Origin: Bacteroidales bacterium
GTDB lineage: Bacteria; Bacteroidota; Bacteroidia; Bacteroidales; VadinHA17
Assembly: GCA_035529055.1 (NCBI GenBank)
Contig: DATKXL010000133.1
Coordinates: 3,870-67,869, forward strand
Reading direction: 5' to 3'
Length of the DNA: 64,000 bases
Part shown: in pieces, positions 8,213 through 19,297 of the stretch
Layout of the letters: every line of letters starts with the position of its first letter
How positions within the stretch are numbered: position 1 is the stretch's first letter
Notes under the pieces: model-generated
What the model was told of the DNA's origin: nothing
Database searches by the model: none
Seen by the model: only the letters and a program-made list of their open reading frames with translations
Made by a program: the position numbers and the translations under genes

Positions 8213-9532
8213 CTATTTTTTGCCTATCATTCTGGCAACATTACCTTTTTTGGTCATCATCTTCATCATTCGCCGGGTCTCATCAAATTGTTTTAATAGC
8301 TTATTGACCTCCTGAACTGATGTACCGCTGCCTGTTGCAATTCTTTTTCGCCGGCTTCCGTTGAGAACCATCGGATTTGTTCTTTCTTCAGGAGTCATGC
8401 TCCTGATAATTGCTTCAATCCCTTTAAAAGCATTATCATCAATATCAAGATCTTTCACAGCTTTTCCTGCGCCAGGGATCATTGCCATCAGATCTTTAAC
8501 GTTTCCCATCTTCTTAATCTGTTGTATCTGGGCTATAAAATCGTTAAAGTCAAACTGATCCCTGGCAATTTTCTTCTGGAGCTTTCTTGCTTCTTCGACA
8601 TCATATTGCTCCTGGGCCTTCTCAACAAGAGATACGATATCTCCCATGCCAAGTATTCTGTCTGCCATCCGGCCAGGGTAGAAAATATCGATAGCATCCA
8701 TTTTTTCACCTGAGCTGACAAACTTAATTGGCTTATTTACCACCGATTTTATTGAAAGAGCGGCACCTCCACGGGTATCCCCATCGAGTTTAGTTAATAC
8801 AACTCCATCAAAATCAAGTCTTTCATTAAACTCTCTTGCGGTATTTACAGCATCCTGTCCGGTCATTGAATCAACGACAAAAAGCACTTCATGAGGATTC
8901 ACAGCTTCCTTAACAGTAGAGATCTCTTTCATCATCTCCTCATCAATAGCCAGCCGGCCGGCAGTATCTATGATCACGAGATCGTAACCCTTCAGTTTTG
9001 CTTCTTTAATTGAATTCCTGGCTATCTGCACCGGATTAAGGTTTCCCTCTTCTGTATAAACAGGAACCTCTATTTGCGATCCGATTATTTTAAGCTGCTC
9101 AATAGCTGCAGGTCTATAGACATCACCGGCTACCAGCAGAGGGTTTTTACCCCGCTTGCTCTTTCCCCACTTTGCAAGTTTTCCGCTGAAGGTGGTCTTT
9201 CCTGATCCCTGGAGACCTGCGATCAACACAATTGCAGGGTTAATTTTTATATTGATATCGGTCTTATCTCCTCCCATCAGCTCAACCAACTCATCATGAA
9301 CGATTTTAATCATCATCTGCGATGGATTGATTGACTTCAGTACCTCCTGCCCAAGGGCTTTGACCTTTACTGTATCGGTAAACTGCTTGGCAATTTTAAA
9401 ATTCACATCGGCATCAAGCAAAGCCCTGCGAACCTCCTTCAATGTTTCGGCGATGTTAATCTCCGATATTCTGCCCTGTCCTTTTAGTATTTTAAAGGAT
9501 TTTTCAAGCCGTTCACTTAAATTCTCAAACAT
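8213..9532 (-). CDS. ffh: Signal recognition particle protein
   Basis: 439 aa with GLQGSGKTT (G1), DTAGR and TKLDGD, plus a Met-rich C-terminal M domain ([11 protein letters not shown]). Confidence 0.92.
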
Positions 9533-9564: not shown

Positions 9565-11352
9565 CTACATTCTTTCAGGCATTTCAATACCCAGCAACCA
9601 CATTCCGGAAGCCAGAACCTCACTTGCAACTCCTGATAAAGCAAGTCTGAAATTTCTTAATGCCTCATTTTCCTCTCCAAGGATTGAGAAATCGTGATAA
9701 AACTGATTATATTCCCTGGCAAGCTCATAGCAATAATTTGCCACAACAGCAGGAGAGTAACCGTAGGCGGCTTCTGCCACAGTGTTGCTGAATTTACGGA
9801 GCAGTTTGATAAGCTCAATTTCCTTCTTGCCGGGTTTTGCCTGAGTAATAACTGAATTATCATGAATTATTCCCATTTGATCCGCTTTTCTGAAAACTGA
9901 CTTTATCCTGGCATAGGTGTATTGTATGAAAGGACCTGTATTTCCATTAAAATCAATAGATTCGACAGGATTAAATGTCATGTTTTTTCTCGGATCGACT
10001 TTAAGTATAAAATACTTAAGGGCTCCGAGTCCTATTTTTCTGAATATATCCTCTTTTTCTTCCTCGTTATATTCCGACAGTTTTCCTAATTCGAGTGAGA
10101 CTATCCGCGCCGTATCTTTCATCTCTTTAATAAGGTCGTCAGCATCCACGATTGTACCTTCCCGCGATTTCATTCTTCCTTCGGGAAGCTCAACCATACC
10201 ATAAGAGAAATGGATCAGTCCGTCTGCAAATTTGTATCCCATCTTTTTAAGAAGTGACTTCAACACCTGGAAATGGTAATTTTGTTCATTACCAACCACA
10301 TAGATAGTTTTATCAAATCCAAAATCATTATACCTGGCAACAGCCGTACCAAGATCCTGGGTCATATATACTGCTGTACCATCGGAACGGAGAAGAAGTT
10401 TCTGATCGAGTCCTTCGGATGTCAGGTCAGCCCATATCGAACTGTCATTATTTCTATATAGTAAATTATTCTGCAATGCGGAAAGAACAATGTTCCTGCC
10501 AATAATATAGGTATCGGATTCATAATAGATCTTATCGAAATCAACCCCAAGCATTTTGTATGTTTCATCAAACCCATCATAAACCCATGAATTCATTTTT
10601 TTCCAGAGATCAACCAGCTCTGTTTCGCCGGCTTCCCATCTAAGAAGCATCTCTCTGGCCTCCTGCATAAGAGGTGCCGCATTTCTGGCATCGGCTTCAT
10701 TCATCCCGGTGCTGATAAGATCATCAACCTGGGTTTTAAGTTCTTGTTCAAACCTCACATAGTATTTTCCAACAAGGTGGTCGCCTTTTATTCCTGACGA
10801 TTGAGGAGTTTCTCCTTCACCATATTTCTGCCACGCAAGCATCGATTTGCAGATATGTATCCCGCGATCGTTAACAATATTCGTTTTGATTACTTTGTGG
10901 CCGCAGGCAGAAAGTATCCGGTAAAGTGAAAACCCAAGCAAATTATTGCGGATATGTCCGAGATGCAAAGGTTTATTGGTATTGGGAGAGGAATATTCAA
11001 CAAGAACTACCCACGGGTCAGCACTCTGGCAATTTTTAAACAGATTCTTTTCCGCAGACAATCTCATGAAATAATCCACCCACCATTCGTCGCTTATTTC
11101 AAGGTTAAGAAAACCTTTAATAACATTATACCCTGTAACTGCCTTGAAATTTGAAACAAGATAATTTCCGATGTTCTCACCAGTCTGTTCGGGTGTGTTT
11201 TTAGAGAAGCGCAGGAGCGGAAAGACTATCAGGGTGAAATCCCCTTTAAAATCCTTTCTTGTTTCCTGCAACTGGATAAGGTCATCAGTTAAGTTACTAT
11301 TGTAAAGGAATTTTATAGCATCCCTTATCTTATCTTTTAAAATAATCTCCAT
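9565..11352 (-). CDS. argS: Arginine--tRNA ligase
   Basis: 595 aa with SSPNTNKPLHLGHIRNNLLG (HIGH-type motif). The C-terminal anticodon-binding domain ends in MPERM. Confidence 0.9.
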   Translation of the reverse strand: MEIILKDKIRDAIKFLYNSNLTDDLIQLQETRKDFKGDFTLIVFPLLRFSKNTPEQTGENIGNYLVSNFKAVTGYNVIKGFLNLEISDEWWVDYFMRLSAEKNLFKNCQSADPWVVLVEYSSPNTNKPLHLGHIRNNLLGFSLYRILSACGHKVIKTNIVNDRGIHICKSMLAWQKYGEGETPQSSGIKGDHLVGKYYVRFEQELKTQVDDLISTGMNEADARNAAPLMQEAREMLLRWEAGETELVDLWKKMNSWVYDGFDETYKMLGVDFDKIYYESDTYIIGRNIVLSALQNNLLYRNNDSSIWADLTSEGLDQKLLLRSDGTAVYMTQDLGTAVARYNDFGFDKTIYVVGNEQNYHFQVLKSLLKKMGYKFADGLIHFSYGMVELPEGRMKSREGTIVDADDLIKEMKDTARIVSLELGKLSEYNEEEKEDIFRKIGLGALKYFILKVDPRKNMTFNPVESIDFNGNTGPFIQYTYARIKSVFRKADQMGIIHDNSVITQAKPGKKEIELIKLLRKFSNTVAEAAYGYSPAVVANYCYELAREYNQFYHDFSILGEENEALRNFRLALSGVASEVLASGMWLLGIEMPERM

Positions 11353-11374
11353 TATCGCTAAAAATTTCCGCCTG

Positions 11375-11382
11375 CAAATATA
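11375..11382 (-). promoter_or_regulatory. -7 box (TAtaTTTG) for argS
   Basis: The reverse complement of caaatata, 23 nt upstream of ATG 11352. Confidence 0.45.
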
Positions 11383-11540
11383 ACATTTTAATAATATTGA
11401 CGTATAAATCGACAGGCTGATGGATGTTGGGTTCAGAATTTTGCTGCGATCAATCCGGTATTTATATGAACAGCCTTGTTAATTTGACAATCAGTCGTTT
11501 CTTTTTGATGAATGTGTTAGCAGATAATAAAAAGATATTA

Positions 11541-11548
11541 TAATTTTG
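11541..11548 (+). promoter_or_regulatory. -7 box (TAatTTTG) for the DUF1987 gene
   Basis: taattttg, 28 nt upstream of ATG 11576. Confidence 0.45.
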
Positions 11549-11575
11549 AATAAGATATTTAATTTCAAGAGCAAA

Positions 11576-12046
11576 ATGCTAAAAGAGCCCGTCATGAAGG
11601 AGCTAAAAACCATGTATGTTGAACCAACTGAGAAAACACCATTAATTGATCTTAATTATATGAGCGGTGAATTAATCCTCTCTGGCAAATCTATACCAAT
11701 TAATGCTCCCAGGATCTTTGAACCAGTGCTTGACTGGGTCTCTGAATATATTAAGAGCCCGAGACAAACCACAAATTTAAGGTTAAACCTTGAATATTTC
11801 AATACTGCCTCATCAATATGGCTGGCAAAAATAGTAAAAGCTCTTAGCGGAATAAAAAGCCCGGAATGTGTACTCATTCTGCATATATACTTTCCTATAG
11901 AAGACTTCGATGACATAGATGACATCAAGGATGATCTGAGTCCTGTTATTGATGTTATCAGCAGTGCAACCGTAAGTGTCGGCCTTAAAATATATGGTAC
12001 TGACACCGGTGGAAAGGTTCTTAAGGAATCGATGATTTTTATCTAG
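11576..12046 (+). CDS. DUF1987 / SiaC-like regulatory phosphoprotein family protein
   Basis: TPLIDLNYMSGELILSGKSIPINAPRIFEPVLDWV...LEYFNTASS fits the DUF1987 pattern as I remember it. The ORF-track TTG start (11546) lies inside the TAatTTTG box 11541..11548, so the first ATG (11576) is used; 11594 is also possible. Confidence 0.6.
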   Translation: MLKEPVMKELKTMYVEPTEKTPLIDLNYMSGELILSGKSIPINAPRIFEPVLDWVSEYIKSPRQTTNLRLNLEYFNTASSIWLAKIVKALSGIKSPECVLILHIYFPIEDFDDIDDIKDDLSPVIDVISSATVSVGLKIYGTDTGGKVLKESMIFI

Positions 12047-12132
12047 ATCTTTCACTCAATTTTGTACTGACAATAAGTCAATCTTCCAATTTTTTGACCT
12101 AACTTTATTACGTTAATTAATTGCATCACACC

Positions 12133-13632
12133 ATGCGACGAGTATGTTTTGTCTTGCTATCAATTTTTATCGTTATGGAAACATTTTCCCAAACCAGGTC
12201 AAATGACCGGCGACCGGTTGCCGCCGGCAGATTCTATTCAGCAGATAAAGAGACCCTTACAAGAGATATCCGGCAACTTTTTGAAAATTGTGTGAAGAGT
12301 CCCGGTAATCTTATGGTGAGAGCTGTGGTCACTCCTCATGCCGGGTATGTCTTCTCAGGCAAAGTAGCTGCATCGGCATTTTCGACCGTTGACCGGAACG
12401 CTACAATAAAAAATATTTTCATAATAGGATCAAGTCATGTAATGGCATTTGAAGGAGCATCAGTTTATAATACGGGGGACTTTATAACTCCTCTGGGGAA
12501 GCTTAAAGTGAACATGGAAATTGCTAACAAACTCAAAAGTGAAAACAGACTCTTTAACTTTCCTGTTACTGCTCATAACCAGGAACATAGCATTGAGGTT
12601 CAGATACCTCTTATTCAATATTATTTTACCTCTGATCCAATGATTGTTCCTATCATTATCGGTACAAATAATACCGGCAGCATTAAAAAGATTGCCGAAA
12701 TACTTAAACCATGGTTCGTACCTGAAAATTTGTTTGTTATAAGCAGCGATTTTTCGCATTATCCCGATTACATGAATGCAAATGAGATTGATAATTACAC
12801 TGCAAACAGTTTAATTTCAGGTAATTCCCAGACATTCCTCGAGGCTCTGAAGAAAAACTCAGCAAAGAATATTCCCGGATTATCAACAAGTATGTGCGGA
12901 TGGACCTCCGGACTTCTCTTACTTTATCTTGCTGAAGGGATTAACAATTTGGAATTCAAAAGGATAGATTACTGTAATTCCGGAGATTCCCGGTTTGGAA
13001 GCAAAGACGAGGTAGTGGGCTATCATGCAATTGCATTGATAGAAAAAAAAATCAAATCAGGATCAAACAACAATATGGCAGATGAGATATCTTTCACCAG
13101 GGAAGAAAAAGATAAATTATTAGATATTGCCAGGAACAGTATCCGTTCGATGTTGTATGATAAAAAGAGACTTTCAATCGATAATGGAAACCTTCCCGAT
13201 CTCTTCTATATGCCCCTGGGAGCTTTCGTCACCCTGAAAATAAATGGAAAACTCAGAGGCTGTATCGGGAGGTTCACCTCCTCCGACCCGCTCTATAAAG
13301 TAGTAATGGAATCAGCCCTCTCATCCGCTTTTGATGACAACCGTTTCTCTCCTCTTACAGAAGATGAGTTTGAAAAAACAGATATTGAAATTACTGTTCT
13401 CGGGCCATTGAAGAAAATCGATAATATTAAAGATATTGTACTTGGCAAACATGGGATATACATAAAAAAGGAGTTCAGATCGGGGACTATGCTACCTCAG
13501 GTAGCAACTGAAAATGGCTGGAATGTTGAAGAGTTCCTTGGATATACATCCCGTGATAAAGCAGGGATAGGATGGGAAGGCTGGAAAAATGCCGAGATAT
13601 TTATTTATGAAGGAATTGTACTTGAAGAATAG
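12133..13632 (+). CDS. Fused AmmeMemoRadiSam system protein B (Memo-like) / protein A (AMMECR1-like) with an N-terminal signal peptide
   Basis: N-terminal half: RRPVAAGRFYSADKETL...VVTPHAGYVFSGKVAASAF (Memo/dioxygenase-B-like). C-terminal half: LGAFVTLKINGKLRGCIGRF...DDNRFSPL (AMMECR1). Leader MRRVCFVLLSIFIVMETFSQ. ATG 12133 preferred over TTG 12121. Confidence 0.8.
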   Translation: MRRVCFVLLSIFIVMETFSQTRSNDRRPVAAGRFYSADKETLTRDIRQLFENCVKSPGNLMVRAVVTPHAGYVFSGKVAASAFSTVDRNATIKNIFIIGSSHVMAFEGASVYNTGDFITPLGKLKVNMEIANKLKSENRLFNFPVTAHNQEHSIEVQIPLIQYYFTSDPMIVPIIIGTNNTGSIKKIAEILKPWFVPENLFVISSDFSHYPDYMNANEIDNYTANSLISGNSQTFLEALKKNSAKNIPGLSTSMCGWTSGLLLLYLAEGINNLEFKRIDYCNSGDSRFGSKDEVVGYHAIALIEKKIKSGSNNNMADEISFTREEKDKLLDIARNSIRSMLYDKKRLSIDNGNLPDLFYMPLGAFVTLKINGKLRGCIGRFTSSDPLYKVVMESALSSAFDDNRFSPLTEDEFEKTDIEITVLGPLKKIDNIKDIVLGKHGIYIKKEFRSGTMLPQVATENGWNVEEFLGYTSRDKAGIGWEGWKNAEIFIYEGIVLEE

Positions 13633-13643
13633 AAAAAGTAACT

Positions 13644-16070
13644 ATGTATCATGTCGTTAGTACACTATTTACAGCTTTGGTTCTTTACCTGACAAGTTAT
13701 TTTTTCTACCGGATTGGCTTTTACTCTTTACAGGTTCACAGAAAACTCTGGAATTCTGCACTAGTAATTGCCTTTATTATAACAGCTCTGGCAGGGGTTT
13801 TTCTTGCTCTGCAGATAAGCCATAAGTGGAACCTCTCATTCGTCAAAACAATCCTTAAATGGCATGCTGAAGCCGGAATTGGTCTGGCTGCAATAGGGAT
13901 TTTCCATCTTATCTGGCACTTGTCATATTTTAAAAAACTGTTTGAAAAACAGGAGAAGATACCACTCGGCAAAGAGGGTCAAATACCGGAGTCACCAAAG
14001 ATGACCGCCAATTTGTTTGTAACAGGTTTTGTCAGTTCATCAATTCAGTTGTTGCTTATCAGGGAGATGATGAATATTTCGGGAGGTTATGAACTGATTA
14101 CCGGAACTTTCCTGGGATCATGGCTGATCGGATCGGGAATCGGCGCAGCCTTTGCAGGCAGTTCATCAATGAAAGACATCAGGAAAATAAACCTTGTCTT
14201 TTCTTTAAGCCCCTTCATATCGCTTTCCCTTTTATTTATATTCGCAAATTTATTTCTTAAAACCGGTGAGACTCCCTCTTTTCTGATCAGTTTAATCTTT
14301 ACGTTCATCGTTCTTATCCCATTTTGTCTGGCCTCGGGATTCACTTTCGTAAAACTTATTTATGCTGCACGGTCAGGTAATAATTTTATCCCAGGAAAAT
14401 CTTTTTCAATAGAAACAATTGGCGGGATCATAGCCGGAATTATTATAGCTTTCCTGAGTTCGGGTGTGCTGAATACTTATCAGATGATATTACTGGTAAT
14501 TATATCGGGATTTTCATTTGTTATGCTAACCTTCTACCTGAAGAACAAATCAGCGAGGCTGTTTTTTAAGCTATCAATTCTTATCATCTGCTCTCTGATA
14601 ATAATTTCCGAACCGGATGTTTCTTTCAGACAACTGCTGCTCCCGGGAATTGCAGTAAGAGAAACACAAGATACTCCATATGGCAATATTACCAGAGCTG
14701 AGTATGAAGGAGATCCTGCAGTATATTATAATCATCGCCTTCTTTCGTATAGTGATGATGTTATGGAGCGGGAAGAAGATATTCATTATGCCATGCTTCA
14801 GAGTGATCATCCTCAAAGTGTGCTGTTGATCTCAGGTTCAATTAACTCACATATTAATGAAATAATGAAGTATCCCGTTATGAAGGTTGTATATGTTGAA
14901 AGGGATCCTGCATTAATAAAATTTGAGAACTCTGCTCCTCTTCCGGAATTTCAGAACCTGAGAATTGAATATGAAGATGCATTCAGTTATATCAGGAAAT
15001 CTGATGAACTATTTGATGTGATTATAGTCCTTCTGCCACCACCCTCTTCTCTTCTGCTAAACAGATTTTACACAACAGATTTCTTTGAAACTGTTATTAA
15101 TAAACTTAATTCCGGCGGTGTTTTTTTATGCTCACCCGGTATCAACACCAATTACTTCAACAAAGAAGCGGTTAATCTTTATTCATCAGTATTCAACAGT
15201 CTGAGCGCTGTGTTTAAGAATGTACTGCCTGTTGCCGGTAATAAAATCTACTTTATTGCCTCCGGCAAAAATCTCTCCCCTGCCTTCTGCGATCTTACAA
15301 TGAGAAGAAATATAAGCAATGTTTATGTAGGCCCGGATTTTCTTGCAGATGACCTTACATTAATGAAATCTGAAGAGATTATCTCATTAATGGACAAGAA
15401 TATCTCACAGAACAGGTCAGCACATCCTGTTGCCTGTTTTTATTATCAGTCATTTAATCTGAGCAAAACCCTTAAGGAGAGAATCCCTGCACTTATACTT
15501 TTAATAATAATCTTCATTTTGCCAATCTTTACCATAAGAAGGAGTAATCTCATTATGTATTGCAGTGCATCGGCCCTGGCCGGTTTTGAAATTATCTTAT
15601 TGTTAGTTTTACAGCTTACGATAGGAAATATGTATCAGCTGACAGGACTGATTATTGCAGGACTGATGGCCGGACTGGCAGTCGGATCCGGAATTAATAT
15701 TCGTTATCTCAATAGACTATCTTTAAGGTTAAGGATTATTATGCTTTTTGCCTTCTATTTGCTGTCAGCTCTCCTTATTAATAATATCCTCTTTCTAAAA
15801 GGTGTATTACCGGTTGTAAGTTTAATTATTTTATCAGCTTTTTTGCCGGCGTTACTTACCGGCAACCTCTTCAGAGAGCTTACACTTGATAATAAAGGGA
15901 ATAGTAGTCCCTCATCTGTTTACAGTGCTGACCTGGCGGGTTCGGCTCTTGGATTTATCCTTTTCGCAGGACTAGCTGTTCCGGCGTTTGGAATAAAGGT
16001 TTCTGTTTTTCTGTTATCGGTAATGGTAATAGCCGGTTTTATGTTTGGCACAGTCAGAAACAAATATTAG
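13644..16070 (+). CDS. Polytopic membrane protein with a central spermidine-synthase-like (fused MFS/spermidine synthase type) domain
   Basis: 808 aa with many TM helices at both ends. The central soluble region VLLISGSINSHINEIMKYPVMKVVYVERDPALIKF...FDVIIVLLPPPSS resembles the class I methyltransferase/SpeE fold, but its glycine and Asp motifs are degenerate. Confidence 0.6.
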   Translation: MYHVVSTLFTALVLYLTSYFFYRIGFYSLQVHRKLWNSALVIAFIITALAGVFLALQISHKWNLSFVKTILKWHAEAGIGLAAIGIFHLIWHLSYFKKLFEKQEKIPLGKEGQIPESPKMTANLFVTGFVSSSIQLLLIREMMNISGGYELITGTFLGSWLIGSGIGAAFAGSSSMKDIRKINLVFSLSPFISLSLLFIFANLFLKTGETPSFLISLIFTFIVLIPFCLASGFTFVKLIYAARSGNNFIPGKSFSIETIGGIIAGIIIAFLSSGVLNTYQMILLVIISGFSFVMLTFYLKNKSARLFFKLSILIICSLIIISEPDVSFRQLLLPGIAVRETQDTPYGNITRAEYEGDPAVYYNHRLLSYSDDVMEREEDIHYAMLQSDHPQSVLLISGSINSHINEIMKYPVMKVVYVERDPALIKFENSAPLPEFQNLRIEYEDAFSYIRKSDELFDVIIVLLPPPSSLLLNRFYTTDFFETVINKLNSGGVFLCSPGINTNYFNKEAVNLYSSVFNSLSAVFKNVLPVAGNKIYFIASGKNLSPAFCDLTMRRNISNVYVGPDFLADDLTLMKSEEIISLMDKNISQNRSAHPVACFYYQSFNLSKTLKERIPALILLIIIFILPIFTIRRSNLIMYCSASALAGFEIILLLVLQLTIGNMYQLTGLIIAGLMAGLAVGSGINIRYLNRLSLRLRIIMLFAFYLLSALLINNILFLKGVLPVVSLIILSAFLPALLTGNLFRELTLDNKGNSSPSSVYSADLAGSALGFILFAGLAVPAFGIKVSVFLLSVMVIAGFMFGTVRNKY

Positions 16071-16104
16071 TTTTAATTAATTTTGAAGTGTTTATCTAAT
16101 TGAG

Positions 16105-17241
16105 ATGCAGGAGGCAAAAAATAAAATCAGCAAACGTGAATTTCTGAAGAAATGCATGGCATTTTCTGCAGGGACTATATGCTTACCGGACACCTCTGTT
16201 TTTTCAGACATTTTCGCCGATCAACCAGGTATTTACAAAAAAATCGCAATGTTCCAGGAGGAGACCGCCAGAGGCATAATGTGCAGGATCTGCCCAAATG
16301 AGTGCGTTCTCAAAGAGGGTGAATTGAGTAAATGTAATAATCGTAAAGTCTATAAATCGAAGCTTTACACCCTGGCATATGGTAATCCCTGTTCAGCTAA
16401 CGTTGATCCAATCGAAAAGAAACCGTTGTATCATTTTCTTCCCGGATCACGGGCATATTCAATAGCAACTGCAGGATGCAATCTTGTATGCCTGAACTGC
16501 CAGAACTGGACTATTTCTCAGACAAGCCCGGATAAGACAAGGAACTATGATCTGATGCCTGAAAAGGTGGTGGAAGAGTGTGTCAATAAGGGCTGCCTGT
16601 CAATCGCCTATACATACTCTGAACCTGTAACCTTTTATGAATATGTTTTTGATACGGCTGCTCTGGCAAGAAAAGCCGGCATAAAAAACATCATCAAATC
16701 GAACGGATATATCCATGAAGAGCCTCTTAGAAAATTATGCACAGTAATTGACGCAGCTAATATTGATTTGAAATCGTTCAGTGAAACCACTTATCTGAAG
16801 CTTACCGGAGGCAAGTTACAACCTGTACTCGATTCACTTAAAATAATAAAAGAAATGGGTATATGGCTGGAGATCACCAATCTTGTTGTTCCTAACTGGA
16901 CAGACAAACCTGAAGAGATAAGAAAAATGTGCAGATGGTTAAGCGACAACGGATTTAGTAAAACGCCCATTCATTTCAGCAGGTTCTATCCTACTCATAA
17001 ACTTGAACAGGTACCGCCGACTCCGGTGGAGGTCCTGAACAAAGTATCACAGATTGCAGCCGAGGAGGGATTAGTATATGTTTATACCGGAAATGTACCA
17101 GGGAACGAAAAATCTGACACAAGGTGTCCCTCATGCTACTCCACATTGATTATCAGGCAGGGTTATCGAATTGCATCCAATAACATAATTACAAACAAAT
17201 GCAGCAAATGCGGCAAGATCATTGAGGGGGTCTGGAGCTGA
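16105..17241 (+). CDS. AmmeMemoRadiSam system radical SAM enzyme
   Basis: CNLVCLNCQNW (CxxxCxxC), an upstream Cys cluster CRICPNEC...KCNNR, and a C-terminal CPSC...CSKCG ribbon. The N-terminal extension SKREFLKKCMAFSAGTICL resembles a Tat signal. Confidence 0.8.
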   Translation: MQEAKNKISKREFLKKCMAFSAGTICLPDTSVFSDIFADQPGIYKKIAMFQEETARGIMCRICPNECVLKEGELSKCNNRKVYKSKLYTLAYGNPCSANVDPIEKKPLYHFLPGSRAYSIATAGCNLVCLNCQNWTISQTSPDKTRNYDLMPEKVVEECVNKGCLSIAYTYSEPVTFYEYVFDTAALARKAGIKNIIKSNGYIHEEPLRKLCTVIDAANIDLKSFSETTYLKLTGGKLQPVLDSLKIIKEMGIWLEITNLVVPNWTDKPEEIRKMCRWLSDNGFSKTPIHFSRFYPTHKLEQVPPTPVEVLNKVSQIAAEEGLVYVYTGNVPGNEKSDTRCPSCYSTLIIRQGYRIASNNIITNKCSKCGKIIEGVWS

Positions 17242-17269
17242 AAATCAAATAATTAATTACTCATCATAA

Positions 17270-19297
<2,028 letters not shown>

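Follow-up and report, generated by a model that had tools for sequence, protein, structure and literature searches.

A Bacteroidales gene cassette with predicted export signals on an AmmeMemoRadiSam radical SAM enzyme and its Memo–AMMECR1 partner

We describe a three-gene cassette in a 64,000-nt stretch of contig DATKXL010000133.1 from a Bacteroidales bacterium (GenBank assembly GCA_035529055.1); this whole stretch is hereafter called the window. The cassette encodes a Memo–AMMECR1 fusion, a polytopic membrane protein (here MemSpeE) and a radical S-adenosylmethionine (SAM) enzyme of the AmmeMemoRadiSam set. Both enzymes are probably exported, the Memo–AMMECR1 fusion by the Sec pathway and the radical SAM enzyme, already loaded with its clusters, by twin-arginine translocation (Tat). 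They would then work with the membrane protein at its outer face, as an extracytoplasmic variant of AmmeMemoRadiSam. This reading is drawn from features of the N-terminal sequences, from how these are conserved and co-vary between loci, and from synteny.

The cassette spans positions 12133-17241 of the window, and coordinates are window positions unless a locus is named. We confirm the three open reading frames (ORFs) at the coordinates given by an earlier, sequence-only reading of this DNA; they are co-directional, on the forward (+) strand like every cassette feature described here, with intergenic gaps of 11 and 34 nt. The first (12133-13632) encodes the 499-residue Memo–AMMECR1 fusion (AmmeMemoRadiSam proteins B and A). 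It matches PF01875 over residues 28-299 and PF01871 over residues 331-494, and exceeds the cut-offs of TIGR04336 (225.7 bits versus 26) and TIGR04335 (153.8 bits versus 99). The second (13644-16070) encodes MemSpeE, an 808-residue protein with a central domain of spermidine-synthase fold (PF01564, residues 380-543) and 17 transmembrane helices in its AlphaFold2 (AF2) model. The third (16105-17241) encodes the 378-residue radical SAM enzyme, which scores 341.2 bits against TIGR04337 (cut-off 220) and carries the cluster motif C125-x3-C129-x2-C132 (16477-16500), invariant in the alignment of its orthologues. Its nearest solved relative is the pyruvate formate-lyase (PFL)-activating enzyme 3c8f. 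The TIGR04337 match covers residues 55-377, so the N-terminal extension of the enzyme lies outside the family model. The fusion ORF lies 2.5 kb upstream of the radical SAM gene; the locus holds the radical SAM enzyme with both the Memo and the AMMECR1 partner that mark an AmmeMemoRadiSam set.

The Memo–AMMECR1 fusion begins with a predicted Sec-type signal peptide. Its N-terminus from the ATG at 12133 reads MRRVCFVLLSIFIVMETFSQ, of which MRRVCFVLLSIFIVMETFS (12133-12189) is predicted to be removed by signal peptidase I before Gln20. The peptide has a basic MRR n-region, the very hydrophobic 12-residue core VCFVLLSIFIVM (best 10-residue Kyte-Doolittle mean 3.23) and the end T-F-S|Q, with small residues at -3 and -1. 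Signal peptidase I substrates of Bacteroidetes follow a Q-rule, with Gln at +1 (PMC5837995); this Gln is present in 120/120 homologues of the fusion, mostly as FS|Q. The N-terminal pattern M-R/K-x-hydrophobic12-M-E-T-F-S-Q is kept in the 97 homologues that are full-length, the other 23 being called from an internal Met. The codon-position test gives a weaker pattern on this signal than on the radical SAM extension considered below. Distant lineages have Memo signals of equal properties and unrelated sequence; that of a high-GC lineage, MGRGAKTLVLLVAICVASLSAGSA, has no sequence similarity to the window signal. Anatomy, conservation and the fit to the Q-rule thus bear out the earlier claim that the fusion carries a Sec signal. 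A TTG at 12121, four codons 5' of the ATG (LHHT-MRR…), is an alternative start used in a mechanical ORF list; it would extend the n-region and leave the signal unchanged. At locus L008 (5728-7250), the fusion is split into two overlapping ORFs of 274 and 261 residues, which may be a frameshift, a pseudogene or an assembly error.

The radical SAM enzyme carries a 48-residue N-terminal extension (16105-16248) that is predicted to be a Tat-type signal. From 16105 the protein reads MQEAKNKISKREFLKKCMAFSAGTICLP. The extension includes the Tat-consensus-like motif I-S-K-R-E-F-L-K-K (residues 8-16; 16126-16152), followed by the weakly hydrophobic h-region CMAFSAGTICLP (residues 17-28; 16153-16188), whose best 10-residue Kyte-Doolittle mean of 1.72 is below the transmembrane threshold. 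The AF2 model of the enzyme is of moderate confidence (pLDDT 67.5); residues 1-48 are unpacked in it, with a low-confidence helix at residues 10-21. The extension, K-R included, is retained in 120/120 close homologues (75-83% identity, nearly all of 378 residues). Conservation varies along it: S/N-K-R-x-F-[LI]-K-[KR] is invariant, the uncharged stretch [SC]xAxSxGxxCxP that comes next is semi-conserved, and a linker of ~15 residues is variable, after which the highly conserved core begins. In a sample of 52 of these homologues, K10, R11, F13 and S21 never vary. When codons 1-27 are compared with seven related genomes, the differences fall mainly at third positions (for example 7/3/17 across the three codon positions). 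This concentration indicates that the extension is translated and under selection.

The sequence-only reading had described both N-terminal sequences and the internal ATG at 16249 exactly as we find them. It had proposed that orthologues be checked for the extensions and the K/R-R-x-F-L-K motif, which proved to be conserved in all close homologues. A true start at Met49 (16249-16251), the outcome that it held would speak against export, is contradicted by the conservation of the extension and by the codon-position statistics. We also note a near-invariant Cys after the h-region of K-R-type signals (Cys25 in the window, 16177-16179), often within C-[FL]-P-C. A lipoprotein reading of this Cys was rejected, as the residue at -1 is I, M or V and not G, A or S; it might instead serve in metal binding, a disulfide or processing.

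The extension resembles a Tat signal in which Lys-Arg replaces Arg-Arg. The window motif S-K-R-E-F-L-K fits six of the seven positions of the consensus S/T-R-R-x-F-L-K, and lacks only the pair of consecutive arginines. Its K-R columns align with R-R in orthologues from Desulfobacterota, Omnitrophota, Fibrobacterota and some Bacteroidales, where the motif reads, for instance, TRRRFLAA, SRRDFIKK, SRREFLKA or KRREFIIK. A scan with a 10-sequence alignment, keeping one genome per species, gave 80 loci; with the window and four others, the set comprises 85. A Tat-like radical SAM enzyme is encoded at 64 of these (33 KR, 28 RR and 3 RK). The K-R form dominates in Bacteroidota (Bacteroidales, Prolixibacteraceae and Marinilabiliales, with which we also group Ignavibacteriae), and R-R in Desulfobacterota, Omnitrophota and Fibrobacterota, being present in some Bacteroidales as well (L012-L015, L033). 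The KR, RK and RR forms interleave phylogenetically. On the evidence of these alignments, K-R is a lineage-level variant of an otherwise canonical Tat motif. Across the wider family, a Tat-like N-terminus occurs in 30 of the best 150 cluster representatives at 50% identity (26 RR, 2 KR and 2 RK), and 76 of the 150 are at most 360 residues long and have neither extension nor signal.

The hydrophobic regions of the two enzymes' signals differ in the direction expected of a Tat and a Sec signal. Across the 64 loci, the radical SAM h-regions average 1.93 for the best 10-residue Kyte-Doolittle value and have a Gly content of 15%; the Memo signals encoded at these loci average 3.00, with 4% Gly. The difference in hydrophobicity is highly significant (Mann-Whitney p=1e-19), with the radical SAM signal the less hydrophobic in 43 of 44 pairs. 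K-R and R-R h-regions are indistinguishable in this comparison. Weaker hydrophobicity is a known difference of Tat from Sec signals (PMC7317946), and the radical SAM h-regions are both less hydrophobic and richer in Gly than the Sec-type ones. The motif is also rare in its surroundings: [RK]R.F[LIVM] followed by an uncharged hydrophobic stretch occurs in 1 of the 68 window ORFs of at least 100 residues, and in ~700 kb of K-R-type loci only in the radical SAM enzyme and two unrelated R-R proteins. One of these two, at L037, where the radical SAM enzyme is of the KR type, has a canonical RR Tat-type signal; judged by eye only, it looks Gfo/Idh/MocA-like. The c-region of the window protein contains a possible A-x-A-type site (…DIFA|DQ); this region is variable in the close clade, and clearer A-x-A sites occur in distant KR forms. 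Tat is common in Bacteroidetes (PMC3827258), and a natural KR Tat signal exists in Salmonella TtrB (Hinsley et al. 2001, as cited in PMC7317946). Overall, the alignment with R-R columns and the weak, Gly-rich core support the earlier suggestion that the extension is a KR variant of the twin-arginine signal.

The membrane protein encoded between the two enzymes is probably a genuine third member of the system. MemSpeE is 100% identical to a hypothetical protein of a Bacteroidales metagenome-assembled genome, and its sole Pfam domain match is Spermine_synth (PF01564, E=2e-13). The AF2 model, built with 42 homologues (pLDDT 81, pTM 0.85), has 3 + 7 helices, a globular domain and 7 further helices. 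The two seven-helix bundles (residues 117-321, 13992-14606; residues 610-803, 15471-16052) are delimited by the modelled helices and by loop charge bias. An origin of the two bundles by internal duplication was considered and rejected (hhalign probability 0.3%). Between them lies an aminopropyltransferase-fold domain (residues 325-600; 14616-15443). In Foldseek searches, it aligns with spermidine and thermospermine synthases (1uir, 6bq2) over ~280 columns, at target TM scores of 0.63-0.70 (0.67-0.70 for 1uir and 6bq2), and it has both the N-terminal β-domain and the Rossmann domain of that fold.

The active site of this domain is altered. The acidic ribose-binding residue E419 and the adenine-binding D445 are kept, each being at least 90% conserved in a set of 49 homologues that spans several phyla. 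The catalytic D-x-x-D-P has been lost (DLADP becomes LLP-PP in the window; the wider family has N-L-P-[E/P/D]-P), and the GGG(D/E)G loop that binds decarboxylated SAM (dcSAM) is changed (GGGEG to SGSIN in the window, S-G-G-x-G-G in most relatives). All spermidine synthase equivalog models score far below their cut-offs, and the catalytic motif of these enzymes is missing. Because both the catalytic DxxDP and the dcSAM loop are altered, MemSpeE is, judging by its motifs, not a spermidine synthase. The domain may plausibly still bind an adenosyl compound.

Loop charges predict a periplasmic SpeE-like domain in MemSpeE. On average, the loops assigned to the cytoplasmic side contain 20.7 Lys and Arg and the others 4.6, a bias seen in 49/49 homologues. 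By the positive-inside rule, each helix bundle independently puts the globular domain on the outer face. Ahead of the first bundle is a three-helix, His-rich module (residues 1-96; 13644-13931), in which H32, H74, H88 and H92 are invariant. It resembles cytochrome b561 (PF01292) below threshold (16.8 bits versus a cut-off of 30.1, E=0.006, three helices only), and we regard it as a candidate heme-b or electron module purely as a hypothesis. The module is fused in the window clade, is a separate ORF of ~108 residues at L029 (4343-4681) and L033 (7474-7806), and is absent from the ~700-residue MemSpeE forms of Desulfobacterota.

Export signals and the membrane protein co-vary with the cassette across loci. 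Among Tat-type loci with a complete Memo, 44 of 45 have a Sec-type signal on Memo(–AMMECR1). Of the 64 Tat-type loci, 51 have a MemSpeE homologue within 10 kb; its gene usually follows that for Memo–AMMECR1 and precedes that for the radical SAM enzyme. All-against-all clustering of neighbouring ORFs yields only three recurrent families: the radical SAM enzyme (64 loci), MemSpeE (53) and Memo–AMMECR1 (50); the remaining clusters are lineage-specific or antisense artefacts. The intervening membrane protein, which the sequence-only reading had flagged as potentially relevant, is therefore a third conserved cassette member with a SpeE-fold domain predicted to be periplasmic. Loci at which neither enzyme bears a signal (L041, L043) are without the membrane protein. 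Near three unlinked, signal-less radical SAM representatives, we found no Memo, AMMECR1 or MemSpeE, which is consistent with the export model in a small sample.

Two Tat-type contexts depart from the usual arrangement. At one locus (L002/L003, 5788-7941), which is without Memo or AMMECR1, two paralogous secreted coiled-coil proteins of 327 and 336 residues, with no Pfam match, stand directly 5' of the radical SAM and MemSpeE genes. At L001 (6735-10089), no Memo, AMMECR1 or MemSpeE gene lies near that for the RR-type radical SAM enzyme P0262. This enzyme is instead encoded beside PMT-family glycosyltransferases, another radical SAM/SPASM enzyme and a β-propeller-like protein of 324 residues, and it may represent a different use of an exported enzyme.

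Relatives of the radical SAM enzyme are fused to, or adjacent to, modules of extracytosolic electron transfer. Within its clade, it is fused to DsbD_2 (P0244, P0266), to DsbD_2, FMN_bind and Fer4_5 (P0269), and to FMN_bind and Fer4_5 with one further helix (P0249, P0259). P0263 and P0264 have an N-terminal anchor and an FMN_bind domain with the canonical SGAT flavinylation motif, with no helix before the radical SAM domain, and the P0264 gene adjoins one for a DsbD_2–Fer4_5 membrane protein. Fusions of the form signal–CBM11–radical SAM, signal–β-propeller–radical SAM and signal–Memo–AMMECR1–radical SAM also occur. In the last of these (P0246), no helix exceeds the transmembrane threshold, and the signal was judged from the N-terminus by reading only. 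Counting helices and loop charges puts the radical SAM domain outside in the polytopic fusions. The CBM11 and β-propeller fusions, which have only an N-terminal signal-like helix, point the same way. NapH-like and FMN-binding modules are an established extracytosolic electron-delivery apparatus (Méheust et al. 2021, PMC8238504), and radical SAM partners are not mentioned among the systems of that study. There is also precedent for polytopic proteins whose C-terminal iron-sulfur (Fe-S) domain is placed outside by Tat (PMC5449189). Judging by these architectures, DsbD-like, NapH-like and FMN-binding modules, either fused to the radical SAM enzyme or encoded beside it, appear to supply the electrons in other lineages.

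We propose the following working model, in which we infer export, its route and the topology of the proteins. The three genes would be co-transcribed. The Memo–AMMECR1 fusion would cross the membrane unfolded via Sec, and signal peptidase I would cleave it ahead of Gln20. The radical SAM enzyme would be loaded with Fe-S clusters in the cytoplasm and then cross the membrane folded via Tat, using the Lys-Arg signal variant typical of its Bacteroidota relatives. The 17-helix protein, as a dedicated membrane partner, would present its SpeE-fold, adenosyl-nucleotide-binding-type domain in the periplasm. More speculatively, MemSpeE might supply or hold SAM, or remove products, at the outer face, and electrons might come from the His-rich module or from unlinked redox proteins. 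Options for the supply of SAM, all of them speculative, are hand-over by the membrane protein, carriage and regeneration of SAM by the enzyme, and completion of the SAM chemistry before export.

A bolder form of this model is possible, although we regard it as doubtful: radical SAM chemistry may run outside the cytoplasm over multiple turnovers. The Tat-exported enzyme would dock on the 17-helix protein, whose transmembrane bundles would move SAM or an adenosyl compound across the membrane and whose periplasmic SpeE-fold domain would hand it over or clear products. Membrane modules would bring electrons (the His-rich module in the window, and DsbD-like, NapH-like and flavinylated FMN modules in other phyla), and Memo–AMMECR1 would finish the reaction on an envelope substrate.

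Several observations weigh against an exported radical SAM enzyme. Outside the cytoplasm, neither SAM nor low-potential electrons have any source that we know of. A signal-less radical SAM enzyme stands beside a signal-bearing Memo–AMMECR1 at L036, L039, L040, L070 and L082, which means that the two proteins need not share a compartment. At four loci, a signal-less radical SAM gene overlaps an upstream FMN_bind/NapH-like gene that ends in the N-terminal strand of the radical SAM family. The radical SAM N-termini at L075, L077 and P0246 are very hydrophobic and Sec-like, and export by them would imply an unfolded Fe-S enzyme. The c-region of the extension has no conserved A-x-A site, leaving cleavage uncertain. 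No tatA or tatC gene was detected by tblastn in the 64-kb window and the loci, which is too little sequence to be informative, with approximate E. coli probes. In E. coli, Tat poorly tolerates Lys substitution, with rare natural exceptions (PMC7317946). Finally, the Pfam and NCBIfam Tat-signal models (PF10518, TIGR01409) give no match on the window peptide, and the 12.2 bits reached by a close homologue fall short of the 22.7 required. We take this miss as a limit of RR-trained hidden Markov models, expected for a K-R motif, and not as a refutation.

An alternative is that the two enzymes work on opposite sides of the membrane. The Tat-like peptide would then tether the radical SAM enzyme to the membrane or the membrane protein, or bind a chaperone as a NarG-like vestige. 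The enzyme would act at the cytoplasmic face and Memo–AMMECR1 outside; between the two steps the substrate, which might be lipid-linked or exported, would cross the membrane. Such an arrangement would make the paradox of SAM and reductant vanish. It would also account for the signal-less enzymes next to signal-bearing fusions (L036, L039, L040) and at the split loci, and it agrees with the poor performance of KR as a Tat motif in E. coli (PMC7317946) and the failure of Tat models to recognise the peptide. We nevertheless consider it unlikely. The peptide has full n/h/c anatomy, with a basic n-region that dictates an N-in/C-out orientation; its weak core of 12-16 residues is unsuited as a stable anchor, and the RR forms are canonical. 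Moreover, three independent fusion architectures put the radical SAM domain outside, and the SpeE-like domain of the membrane partner is also predicted to be there.

It is comparably improbable, in our view, that the enzyme is exported but does not sustain SAM chemistry outside. SAM would be used before export, for self- or partner modification or a single-turnover loading, or carried along as a regenerated cofactor, as it is in lysine 2,3-aminomutase, so that the enzyme could act outside with no external SAM supply. Homology reveals no SAM exporter in the cassette, and the Gly loop of the SpeE-like domain is degenerate in the window clade (SGSINS). Tat exports folded, cofactor-loaded proteins (PMC7317946). 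On the other side, SAM is a consumed co-substrate in PFL-activating enzymes, which are the closest relatives to have been characterised, and the electron-module fusions elsewhere suggest repeated reduction and multiple turnovers. A conserved periplasmic domain of adenosyl-binding type would also be hard to explain without a nucleotide ligand outside.

That the signals are start-site artefacts, with the radical SAM enzyme beginning at Met49, the fusion at Met15 (METFSQ…) and the upstream sequence being untranslated leader, is very improbable: 23 of the 120 database fusion homologues are indeed called from the internal Met, and in the alignment Met49 falls close to where signal-less family members have their N-terminus, but the radical SAM extension is conserved at the amino-acid level in 120/120 homologues as an invariant motif plus variable linker, differences fall at third codon positions (less clearly for the Memo signal), and equivalent signals of unrelated sequence occur in distant phyla.

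Each of the established systems nearest to this one shares some of its features. As in canonical AmmeMemoRadiSam, all three families score above their cut-offs and are adjacent in one set. The canonical radical SAM enzyme, however, has ~335 residues, no extension and a presumed cytoplasmic location, whereas in the window an export signal is present on both enzymes, Memo is fused to AMMECR1, and the set gains a conserved third gene for a 17-helix, SpeE-like protein. Tat-exported Fe-S proteins (NapG, Rieske proteins, hydrogenase small subunits) share the S-x-R-x-F-L-K-type motif, the weak Gly-rich h-region and an Fe-S cargo that folds before export, and orthologues of the window enzyme carry RR as they do. 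The window cargo differs in being a radical SAM enzyme, and its KR is fixed across a Bacteroidota clade and not an isolated exception. In the NapH-like, FMN-binding and DsbD systems (PMC8238504), the likeness lies with relatives of the window enzyme that are fused or adjacent to FMN_bind (SGAT), Fer4_5 and DsbD_2; the window cassette is without such modules.

Membrane-bound spermidine synthase-like proteins (PRK03612; NF037959, 'fused MFS/spermidine synthase') share with MemSpeE a seven-helix bundle followed by an aminopropyltransferase fold. MemSpeE scores far below both cut-offs (72.7 versus 472 and 15.5 versus 40). Unlike them, it has a second seven-helix bundle, a His-rich three-helix module, replaced catalytic Asp residues and a domain predicted to be periplasmic. 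MsrPQ (PMC5449189) follows the same logic of a Tat-exported periplasmic enzyme with a polytopic heme-b partner, one that may hand electrons outward; this is an analogy only, with no homology, and heme in the MemSpeE module is putative.

The cassette is flanked by housekeeping genes, namely ArgRS (upstream, on the opposite strand), LigA (downstream) and a SiaC-like gene. The product of this last gene (11546-12046, + strand) is a homologue of SiaC-family (PF09345) regulatory phosphoproteins. The gene lies directly 5' of the cassette and keeps this place in 13 related loci, perhaps as a regulator or merely as a conserved neighbour. A promoter and terminator scan of 11300-17500, which did not include Bacteroidota promoters, gave the same counts as shuffled sequence.

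The four split radical SAM genes share a common layout. The sites are at L056 (~10000-10040), L061 (~1995-2030), L070 (~8500-8540) and L082 (~9965-10000), where the upstream ORFs end in …HEGKYWKVSDEKS, …HEARYWRETP, …EAKYYKVLDE and …EARYYKTIDE, respectively, each followed by its stop codon. The radical SAM ORFs start in another frame and overlap the ends of these upstream ORFs by 4-14 nt; the overlap at L056 has the classic slippery heptamer A AAA AAG. The arrangement could reflect gene fission, programmed frameshifting or strand-complementation 'hitchhiking'.

Memo–AMMECR1–radical SAM contexts are reportedly treated by Burroughs et al. 2019 (JBC), where Memo is said to be linked to nucleotide-base and aliphatic isoprenoid modification. 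Our full-text literature searches found no paper on exported or Tat-exported radical SAM enzymes or on this cassette; that study was outside their coverage, and a prior mention there is possible.

To our knowledge, radical SAM enzymes are held to be strictly cytoplasmic, since SAM and low-potential electrons must be supplied to them and their clusters protected. A cassette found in several phyla, with a Tat signal on the radical SAM enzyme, two outward partner domains and electron-module fusions, challenges this cytoplasm-only view. If true, the multiple-turnover form of our model would be without precedent, both as a radical SAM system outside the cytoplasm and as a route of SAM export. The clade-fixed KR motif offers a natural test of the strictness of Tat recognition outside E. 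coli, and localisation and knockout work is feasible in a cultured carrier of the cassette, Mangrovibacterium marinum DSM 28823 (L026). The molecular functions of Memo and AMMECR1 are, as far as we know, still unknown, and both proteins are linked to human disease. An envelope-located Memo–AMMECR1 with a membrane partner would narrow the candidate substrates to molecules of the envelope or membrane.

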